Made by a program: the position numbers and the translations under genes. Positions 22,649 through 37,046 of a stretch of DNA of 64,000 bases are shown one piece after another. The DNA is taken from NCBI RefSeq assembly GCF_054482595.1, contig NZ_CM137008.1. One strand, written 5' to 3'. How positions within the stretch are numbered: position 1 is the first letter of the stretch; each line of letters starts with the position of its first letter. Below the pieces are notes generated by a model, which saw only the letters and a list, made by a program, of their open reading frames with translations, did not search any database and had not been told where the DNA came from.

Positions 22649-22822
22649 TTAAAACAGTGAAAACAACAGCGCCACCGGGAAACTCATCGGCCATGTTGCC
22701 CCCACCAGAAAGGCGCTTAAGAAACGGATGCGTTTCTTATCGTGAGAAAGAAACCAGGTGATAAGAAATGCGATTGCTGCCATAACCGCATAAAAAACAA
22801 GCATGTGTTGATAGAGAGACAT
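22649..22822 (-). CDS. ortT: Orphan membrane toxin OrtT (GhoT-like)
   Basis: Start placed at MSLYQHMLVFYAV within ORF 22649..22897; 57 aa, two hydrophobic helices. Confidence 0.7.
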   Translation of the reverse strand: MSLYQHMLVFYAVMAAIAFLITWFLSHDKKRIRFLSAFLVGATWPMSFPVALLFSLF

Positions 22823-30286: not shown

Positions 30287-30703
<417 letters not shown>

Positions 30704-30748
30704 AATTTCGACTGTCTCTCGCATGTCATTAACCTTTTTAATTGGCGA

Positions 30749-30903
30749 TTAACTCAAACCGAGTTGTTTCAGGATTGCTTTACGCAGGAGTGACGCGGCA
30801 TGACACTGCGCCTCCCATGAAACCTGAGTTTCAAATGGTTGCGGCCATTCGCTACATCGACGCCCTGAGATTCGAGCCAACGTCTGAACTCGCTTTGTTT
30901 CAC
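30749..30903 (-). pseudogene. hicA: hicA toxin gene, apparently frameshifted
   Basis: From GTG at 30903 the frame encodes MKQSEFRRWLESQGVDVANGRNHLKLRFHGRRSVMPRHSC then stops after 44 codons at 30769; the HicA-like C-terminus LRKAILKQLGLS is in another frame ending at 30749. Confidence 0.5.
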
Positions 30904-31124
30904 ATCGCCTCCCTGCCGCTGAGTATATCAACAAAGTAAACATTATTGTTTACCTCCGTGTGTAATTTGCTCGAAAATAGCACTAAATCGCCGCAACGGC
31001 AGAATGCCATGCAAAATCAGGAAGGAAGATTCCAGAATTTCTTTGCGCTAATTTGCAAAACTGAATAATAACCTCAAGAAACGATCGGCATCATAGCGGC
31101 AAAAGGTAAGAAAAAGGTGGCAGG

Positions 31125-35323: not shown

Positions 35324-36532
35324 TCAGGCTGTCGCCTGAATCATTTCGGTGGGTTCCTGCTTCAACGGGCGGCCTGACTGCACCATCTCTCCACAGGCAA
35401 GAACGGCGTGCCCCGCCGCTAAAATGTTACGAGCGCCATTTACATCGGCGTTCGCTGTATATCCACATACCTGGCATCTGAATTTACTTTGTGACAGGCG
35501 GTTCTCTTTCGCTGTATGACCACAGTACGCGCAACGCTGGCTTGTATACGCTGGCGGAACAGCAAGCACCTGACCGCCACGCCAGAGCTGCTTGTACTCA
35601 AGCTGGCGGTGCATTTCATACCAGCCCTGATCCAGTATCGAACGGTTTAAACCTGATTTTGCCCGGACATTGCGCCCCGGCTGGCTGACCGTACCCGCTG
35701 CTGACTTTGACATGTTGCTGACCTTCAAATCCTCAATGACTATCATTGCGTGGTTTTTGCTGACGGCCGTTGTGACTTTGTGAAGGTAGTCCCTGCGGAT
35801 ATTTGCGATACAGGAATGCAGTCGCTGTATTTTGCGTTTCTGCTTCTGCCAGTTGTTGCTGAATTTGACCTTGCGGCTTAACTGTCGCTGAAGTCTCGCC
35901 AGCGTCTTCTGGTTTTTCTGAAAACTGTTTACAGGCTCAAAGACTGTGCCATCTGACAGCGTGGCGAGTTTAGCCACGCCAGCATCCAGCCCGACCATTG
36001 ATGCTGAAGGGTGAGCCGGAGTGGATACTTCACTTTCTGTCTGAATACTGATGTACCACTTACCGCAGGACTGGCTGACAGTGACATTTTTCACAACACC
36101 CGTGACCTGACGGCTGTTCCGGTAGCGCATCCAGCCCAGTTTCGGCAGAAAAATACGGCTGTTTTCCTGATCGAGCTTAACGCCCTGCGGGTAGCGGAAT
36201 GCATCATTCTGTCCCCGCTTTTTGAATCGGGGAAAAGCAGCCCGCTTCCGGAAGAAGTTTTTGTAAGCCCGCTCAAGGTCTTTCAGTGACTGTTGCAATG
36301 GCTGTGAGGGAGAATCTTTAAGCCATTGCGTTTCAGTGGCATTTTTCCACTCAACCAGCCAGGAAGCCATTTTCCCGTAAGGGATGTATTTATTACCGGC
36401 CTCATGATTCTCATTCTGACGTGCCAGAGCACGATTGAAAACGAAACGACATGCGCCTGCGAAGCGCCTCATTTCACACTCCTGTTGACCACCTGGTCTT
36501 AACTGGAATTTAAATGCCTGTAATCGTTTCAC
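35324..36532 (-). CDS. insQ: TnpB (OrfB) IS200/IS605 accessory protein, RuvC-like with C-terminal zinc finger
   Basis: 402-aa ORF; C-terminal CAYCGH...CQVCG zinc finger and RuvC-like region. Confidence 0.8.
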
Positions 36533-36539
36533 AGGTCAA

Positions 36540-37046
36540 ATGATACTTTGGTCTGTGAAAAAAGAAACCGATATCCGGCGTGGAAGGCATTGTGTTTTCC
36601 TGATGCATGTTCACCTGGTCTTTGTCACCAGATACCGACGCCAGATTTTTGACCATGACGCGACAGAAAAACTACGCACTTACTTTTCAAATGTATGTGC
36701 TTATTTTGAAGCTGAACTGGTTGAAATGGATGGCGAACCAGATCACGTCCATTTGTTAATTAACTAACCTCCCAAACTGGCGATATCCAGTCTGGTAAAC
36801 AGCCTCAAAGGCGTATCGGGTAGGTTACTGCGACGAGATCGACCAGATATTGCAGTCAGGTATTACTACAAAGGCGTTTTGTGGAGTCCTGGCTATTTTG
36901 CCAGTAGCTGCGGAGGTGCGCCAATATCCGTCATCCGCCAATACATTGAACAACAGCAAACACCTGGTCAGGTGGAAAACCGCGCCTTATATCCCCGCCC
37001 TGAAGGATGGGGTTTTACGGCGCACCGGATAAAAAGCGCCATCTAA
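36540..37046 (+). pseudogene. IS200-type TnpA (Y1 transposase) interrupted by an in-frame TAA
   Basis: HVHLLIN-stop-PPKLAISSLVNSLKG...YYYKGVLWSPGYF: HuH motif and catalytic-Tyr region in one frame, split by TAA at 36765..36767. Confidence 0.65.

Follow-up and report, generated by a model that had tools for sequence, protein, structure and literature searches.

The hicAB locus between yncJ and ydcR

The DNA analysed here is a stretch of 64,000 nucleotides from an E. coli chromosome, referred to below as the window. On its minus strand it carries ydcR, hicB, hicA, yncJ and rlhA in this order, and the hicAB locus sits between yncJ and ydcR as it does in K-12. The following features were assigned (positions are those of the window).

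30749..30903, minus strand: hicA pseudogene, complete remnant (GTG start through original TAA stop); its extent is that of the PGAP pseudogene 'mRNA interferase, frameshifted' of window-identical genomes and of the alignment with K-12 hicA, which has one 22-bp gap
30769..30903, minus strand: N-terminal hicA frame from the ORF list, 44 codons plus TGA, with residues 1-40 those of HicA, followed by the shifted-frame residues VKQS
30783..30786, minus strand: deletion junction, the single TGCG that remains of two direct copies (K-12 alignment and junction-specific probe)
30749..30787, minus strand: out-of-frame HicA C-terminus, LRKAILKQLGLS plus stop, comprising most of helix alpha2 (ORF list and translation; the AF2 model of intact HicA has alpha2 at residues 44-55)
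30908..30913, minus strand: hicA Shine-Dalgarno sequence GGGAGG, 4 nt 5' of the GTG, the same as in K-12
30936..30953, no strand: perfect inverted repeat GTAAACA-N4-TGTTTAC with 7-bp arms, 5' of hicA, candidate HicB operator of P2
30287..30703, minus strand: hicB antitoxin gene, intact, 138 aa, with an alternative upstream ATG at 30724 that gives 145 aa; the protein is identical to that of K-12

The reading frames are those that the original prediction had described from the letters of the sequence. It had hicA starting from the GTG at 30903 and stopping after 44 codons at 30769, and the ORF list holds an ORF with the same coordinates (30769..30903, minus strand) and the product MKQSEFRRWLESQGVDVANGRNHLKLRFHGRRSVMPRHSCVKQS. 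The C-terminus of HicA had been placed in a different frame ending at 30749, and 30787..30749 does translate to LRKAILKQLGLS followed by a stop codon. The K-12 protein that served for orientation had been given as 58 aa long with the end ...MPRHPCDEIKEPLRKAILKQLGLS, and the K-12 sequence agrees.

This DNA is the orthologue of the characterised hicA of K-12 (hicAB: PDB 6HPB, 6HPC and 6U0I). It lies at the same locus and carries two substitutions besides the 22-bp gap, S21R (30843, AGC>CGC) and P39S (30789, CCC>TCC). Except for these two, the first 40 hicA codons are shared with K-12, as are the hicA start and the Shine-Dalgarno sequence, and the upstream inverted repeat is conserved. When 851 bp of the window were compared with K-12, nine positions differed besides the gap: two 5' of hicA (31008 and 30946), two in hicA and five in hicB. 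All five differences in hicB are synonymous and the encoded protein is identical to K-12 HicB, so the original prediction of an intact hicB beside a truncated toxin gene holds.

Pfam assigns two domains to HicB, PF15919 HicB_lk_antitox (residues 3-67) and PF01381 HTH_3 (residues 88-134), and the protein is 100% identical to the crystallised proteins 6hpb_B and 6u0i_A (138-aa and 145-aa constructs). Both domains are encoded by one uninterrupted ORF downstream of hicA, as expected of a HicB antitoxin. An NCBIfam scan of HicB gave sub-threshold HTH matches only, and no NCBIfam model detects even intact HicA. The start of hicB is ambiguous: RefSeq and PDB 6HPB have 138 aa (ATG 30703), and PDB 6U0I has 145 aa beginning with MRETVEIM (ATG 30724). 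Functional type II hicAB modules have both genes intact in one operon; in the window the toxin ORF is disrupted and PGAP calls it a pseudogene.

Two promoters have been described for the operon. P1 (CRP-S/Sxy) drives expression of HicA and HicB, and the HicB-repressed P2 that of HicB only (PMC11594946, PMC7167474); P2 also carries the operator hicO (PMC11594946). A scan for simple sigma-70 and terminator consensus sequences detected no promoter upstream of hicA and located neither P1 nor P2. The region 5' of hicA differs from K-12 at only two positions. Both arms of the inverted repeat at 30936-30953 are intact in the window, the window-specific A/C SNP at 30946 falling within the spacer, and the repeat is a plausible candidate for hicO of P2. 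Because hicB, its ribosome-binding context and the inverted repeat are unchanged, the published K-12 model suggests that HicB is probably still produced and autoregulated. By analogy with K-12, HicB would probably still repress its own P2 and would represent a solitary autoregulated HTH protein without a cognate toxin.

Two neighbouring loci deserve mention. About 8 kb from the hicAB remnant lies ortT, annotated 'orphan toxin OrtT' (window 22649-22822, minus strand), which places a toxin without antitoxin near an antitoxin without toxin. On the other side, an IS200/IS605-family tnpA (window 36540-37046, plus strand) is a pseudogene with an internal stop according to the annotation of genome THO-010, and it is adjoined by insQ (35324-36532, minus strand), an intact InsQ/TnpB RNA-guided endonuclease gene.

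The 22-bp deletion and the truncated HicA

A DNA alignment of the window, K-12 and E. coli O104:H4 showed a single gap of exactly 22 bp in the hicA of the window relative to K-12. The segment lost reads ATGAGATTAAAGAACCATTGCG in K-12 or, equivalently, TGCGATGAGATTAAAGAACCAT. In the K-12 context, TGCG bounds the lost segment on both sides (CC-TGCG-ATGAGATTAAAGAACCAT-TGCG-TAAAG), and the window keeps one of these copies at 30783-30786. The original prediction had proposed a deletion of about 22 bp between CTGCG repeats. Its size was right, but the repeat has to be shortened to the 4-nt TGCG, as the two K-12 copies stand in CTGCG and TTGCG. The comparison with K-12 hicAB that had been suggested as a check thus returned the 22-bp gap, the frameshifted hicA and the intact hicB.

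Junction microhomology of at least 4 nt is expected at only ~1.6% of random deletions. Given this low chance expectation, the TGCG at the junction makes slipped-strand replication or a microhomology-mediated deletion likely. The loss between the two TGCG copies took away hicA codons 41-47 plus one base, so that the frame shifts after Cys40 and comes to a stop four codons on. Deletions between short repeats that lead to a frameshift are a common route of toxin inactivation (bioRxiv 10.1101/2022.07.18.500305).

We then compared the truncated product with the intact protein. Intact K-12 HicA, used as a positive control, matches Pfam PF07927 HicA_toxin (E=3.7e-7, residues 5-57), and the 44-aa remnant has no HicA_toxin match in Pfam at E<=10. 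The AF2 model of intact HicA (single-sequence, pLDDT 69.7) consists of alpha1 (residues 3-12), beta1 (16-19), beta2 (23-28), beta3 (31-36) and alpha2 (44-55), a topology that agrees with the published dsRBD-like alpha-beta-beta-beta-alpha fold. EcHicA has this dsRBD-like fold with His23 as catalytic residue (PMC11594946). For the remnant only alpha1 was predicted and no sheet, which is weak evidence as these single-sequence AF2 models are only moderately confident (pLDDT ~70). The codons of alpha2 are partly deleted in the window and the rest of them are out of frame, leaving no complete HicA fold encoded.

With respect to its sequence, the 44-aa product would keep alpha1, the residues of all three beta-strands and His23, and would be devoid of the whole C-terminal alpha2. 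The catalytic His23 is present in the 44-aa frame, with S21R two residues upstream of it. As the frameshift after Cys40 eliminates the whole of alpha2, the remnant is expected not to fold and hence to be non-toxic. This expectation derives from the loss of the fold and not from the loss of an active-site residue, since His23 is kept. In comparison with K-12 hicAB, the hicA of the window is thus shorter by 22 bp, frameshifted after codon 40 and without alpha2 or a Pfam match, and the prediction for this half of the module, the toxin, is that it is dead.

We considered whether the 44-aa HicA might nevertheless be functional, either as a weaker RNase toxin or as a peptide that is not toxic but still binds HicB and titrates it away from the P2 operator, with the locus then acting as an altered regulatory unit. 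Retention of the start codon, the Shine-Dalgarno sequence, His23 and the residues of the beta-sheet together with alpha1 makes some residual activity or HicB binding formally conceivable, and as the catalytic histidine lies at the HicB interface in HicAB complexes (PMC11594946), this interface may partly survive. The complete loss of alpha2, the missing Pfam match and the lack of a predicted beta-sheet speak against such a function. We regard it as very unlikely, also in view of the variation among genomes described below.

Translational rescue of the frame would be a different route to a functional product. It could occur by programmed -1 frameshifting or by use of the alternative frame, a 64-codon ORF running from the ATG at 30943 to 30749, as a new protein. 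This frame is open for 64 codons (54 in K-12) and has a GGAGG 9 nt before its ATG. A rescued product would still be without residues 41-47, and the GGAGG is altered in the genomes ECO2947, EL361 and GN04592. Rescue in either form appears hardly credible to us.

Both routes were also looked at individually. Programmed -1 frameshifting was dismissed, as the hicA frame contains no canonical slippery site (X_XXY_YYZ). The 64-codon ORF (30749-30943, minus strand) was rejected as a gene: it carries a stop in MRSN346355 and its ATG lies within the inverted repeat at 30936-30953. It has no NCBIfam match, a result that is uninformative as NCBIfam misses intact HicA too. Judged by its sequence, this ORF is probably non-coding and a by-product.

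Distribution and evolution of the deletion allele

A 48-nt probe centred on the deletion junction matched at full length in 810 of 5426 complete E. coli genomes (15%). Every full-length match listed is annotated 'mRNA interferase', and genomes with intact hicA match only the right-hand 30 nt of the probe. Using the 851-bp query, the locus was found in 5414 of the 5426 genomes. Matches of at least 99% identity span 851 bp and bear the annotation 'mRNA interferase', and those resembling K-12 span 873 bp and bear the annotation hicA. Full-length matches without the 22-bp deletion junction were obtained for ~3445 genomes (4255 minus 810), and all six intact alleles that were examined encode a 58-aa HicA.

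The original prediction had left room for a sequencing or assembly error, with the 22 bp really present and hicA intact. The same junction, however, recurs in 810 complete genomes, which stem from a wide range of laboratories, hosts and countries. Moreover, at least five genomes that were assembled independently match the 24 kb around the locus (window 20000-44000) with 100% identity; they came from humans, a pig, chicken meat and the environment. THO-010 belongs to these identical genomes, and its pseudogene (JLH08_RS11895, 'mRNA interferase'), when mapped back onto the window, has exactly the coordinates 30749-30903 that had been predicted. Over these 24 kb, O157:H16 Santai also shows ~100% identity to the window. 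There are also sub-lineages with further mutations nested on the deleted background, and such nesting is not expected from an artefact. An error is therefore practically excluded.

The sequence does not coincide with a functional hicA allele either, which had been named as an observation that would contradict the frameshift: the sampled intact alleles are all 22 bp longer, and RefSeq marks the gene as a frameshifted pseudogene. The PGAP note in every carrier inspected is 'frameshifted', and for O104:H4 2009EL-2050 it reads 'frameshifted; internal stop'. With the ORF disrupted relative to intact orthologues, and this disruption recurring in independent genomes, the remnant qualifies as a pseudogene. 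The allele is thus already annotated as a RefSeq frameshifted pseudogene in hundreds of genomes. Among the papers covered by literature searches, none was found that reports this specific hicA allele. In summary, the 22-bp allele is real, but common and ordinary.

To follow the allele over time, we compared 13 carriers, namely ten genomes taken at even steps down the junction-probe ranking plus the window, H1 and O104:H4, with the six intact alleles. The carriers form a nested series. UMB200201_11, PI7 and OkiPb01678 have the deletion only and represent an earlier form of the allele that, unlike the window, is without P39S and S21R. P39S (30789 C>T) is found in O104:H4 and in all carriers beyond these three, and S21R (30843 A>C) on top of P39S defines the type of the window. 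The deletion junctions of O104:H4 2009EL-2050 (O3M_RS13745) and THO-010 are identical to that of the window. THO-010 does not differ from the window at all over 24 kb, whereas O104:H4 2009EL-2050 is without S21R and has an additional AGA>TGA stop at hicA codon 7 (window equivalent 30885). This stop is a second, independent inactivating change in the dead gene. After the initial lesion, the inherited hicA went on gathering damage, first P39S and then S21R, and separately the stop at codon 7.

Among the 13 carriers, the variable codons of the remnant comprise no synonymous and three nonsynonymous or nonsense changes, compared with eight synonymous and five nonsynonymous in the intact hicA alleles. 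Numbers are small, yet at the sequence level this variation is a signature of relaxed constraint. It bears on the idea of a functional 44-aa HicA in that all later changes (S21R and the codon 7 stop of O104:H4 among them) are nonsynonymous or nonsense, as expected under relaxed selection and not for a conserved peptide.

Between the closest intact haplotype, that of 2013C-4361, and the earliest deleted one, the differences are one private SNP and the deletion. A single origin of the deletion on a 2013C-4361-like background would be the most parsimonious explanation of these sequences. The deletion state and the SNPs at 30467 and 31008 occur in all four combinations among the sampled genomes, so the locus must have undergone either internal recombination or repeated loss of the 22 bp at the TGCG repeats.

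The 22-bp deletion is not the only one at the locus. For about 1159 of the 5426 genomes the match covers under 80% of the 851-bp query, and two of them, L004 and L005, were examined; both are without hicA and part of hicB. In L004, a 444-bp deletion begins ~45 nt 5' of the hicA GTG and ends near hicB codon 59 (L004:3100-3400). The deletion in L005 shares this left edge but measures 617 bp, leaving only the last 67 nt of hicB (L005:3100-3220). This common left edge is at the inverted repeat (window ~30948) and suggests that the repeat is a hotspot for deletions or that one deletion was followed by a second one nested on it. Altogether, roughly a third of the complete E. coli genomes are without a full-length hicA, owing to at least three different deletions, and of the three deletion alleles only the 22-bp one preserves hicB. 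The complete deletion of hicA in other lineages again argues against a function of the 44-aa product.

Fate of hicB and decay of the module

We wondered whether the intact hicB might be kept by selection as an orphan antitoxin, conferring anti-addiction or immunity against plasmid- or phage-borne HicA, or serving as a co-opted transcription factor. The HicB protein accession is that of K-12 in 12 of the 13 sampled carriers, the inverted repeat and the hicB reading frame are intact, and for ccd systems anti-addiction is an established concept (PMC2654758). Against selective retention, hicB is already damaged in one of the 13 carriers: in PI7 unrelated sequence has taken the place of its 3' end, so that hicB too has been inactivated there, by a rearrangement or an insertion. 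Beside the break in PI7 (L014:1100-1448) lies a 'lysozyme inhibitor LprI family' gene, and ydcR is not its neighbour. L004 and L005 lost part of hicB together with hicA, which indicates that hicB is dispensable. Among the carriers, one hicB codon is polymorphic (one synonymous and no nonsynonymous change), and a single polymorphic codon has no statistical power with regard to selective retention. Taken together, we consider retention of hicB by selection unlikely.

Searches of plasmid and phage collections turned up essentially no close HicA homologue on a genuine E. coli plasmid or in an E. coli phage. On true mobile elements, the best matches were 81% identical (an Arsenophonus plasmid) and 70% identical (a Cronobacter phage), neither of them from E. 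coli. An anti-addiction role of the orphan HicB was set aside as unsupported by these searches, which returned no close HicA from an E. coli plasmid or phage. The only near-identical HicA matches in the plasmid collection were three chromosome-size records, PLSDB NZ_CP134663.1, NZ_CP141089.1 and NZ_OL790696.1, listed as 'plasmid' with 4.8-4.9 Mb and evidently E. coli chromosomes. NZ_OL790696.1 matches HicA residues 1-40 only, as the deletion allele predicts.

An extended version of this idea has selection maintaining an autoregulated orphan HicB, either for immunity against mobile HicA or as a regulator of host genes, with the 44-aa stub possibly acting as a non-toxic modulator that binds HicB. 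We find this combination slightly more doubtful.

Comparable decay has been reported for other modules. For chromosomal TA loci of E. coli, decay through deletions and nonsense mutations is documented (PMC7167474, with reference to Fiedoruk 2015 and Mine 2009; PMC2654758). The ccdO157 locus and the surveyed E. coli chromosomal TA loci resemble hicAB, where three deletion alleles are seen, in being type II modules at a conserved position that are degenerate in some lineages. HicAB differs from ccdO157 in belonging to another TA family, in its reverse gene order and its two promoters.

We conclude, with a probability of about 0.92, that the window carries a chromosomal hicAB toxin-antitoxin locus in decay, its toxin gene having been inactivated first. 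This toxin-first decay agrees with the notion that E. coli can do without chromosomal modules of this kind. The 22-bp junction provides a handy lineage marker, and carriers of the deletion, O104:H4 included, should not be credited with the phenotypes derived from K-12 hicAB (persistence, stress response, Sxy/CRP regulation). Otherwise mainly of value for annotation, the locus represents a clean, population-wide case of the toxin-first decay of a chromosomal TA module.
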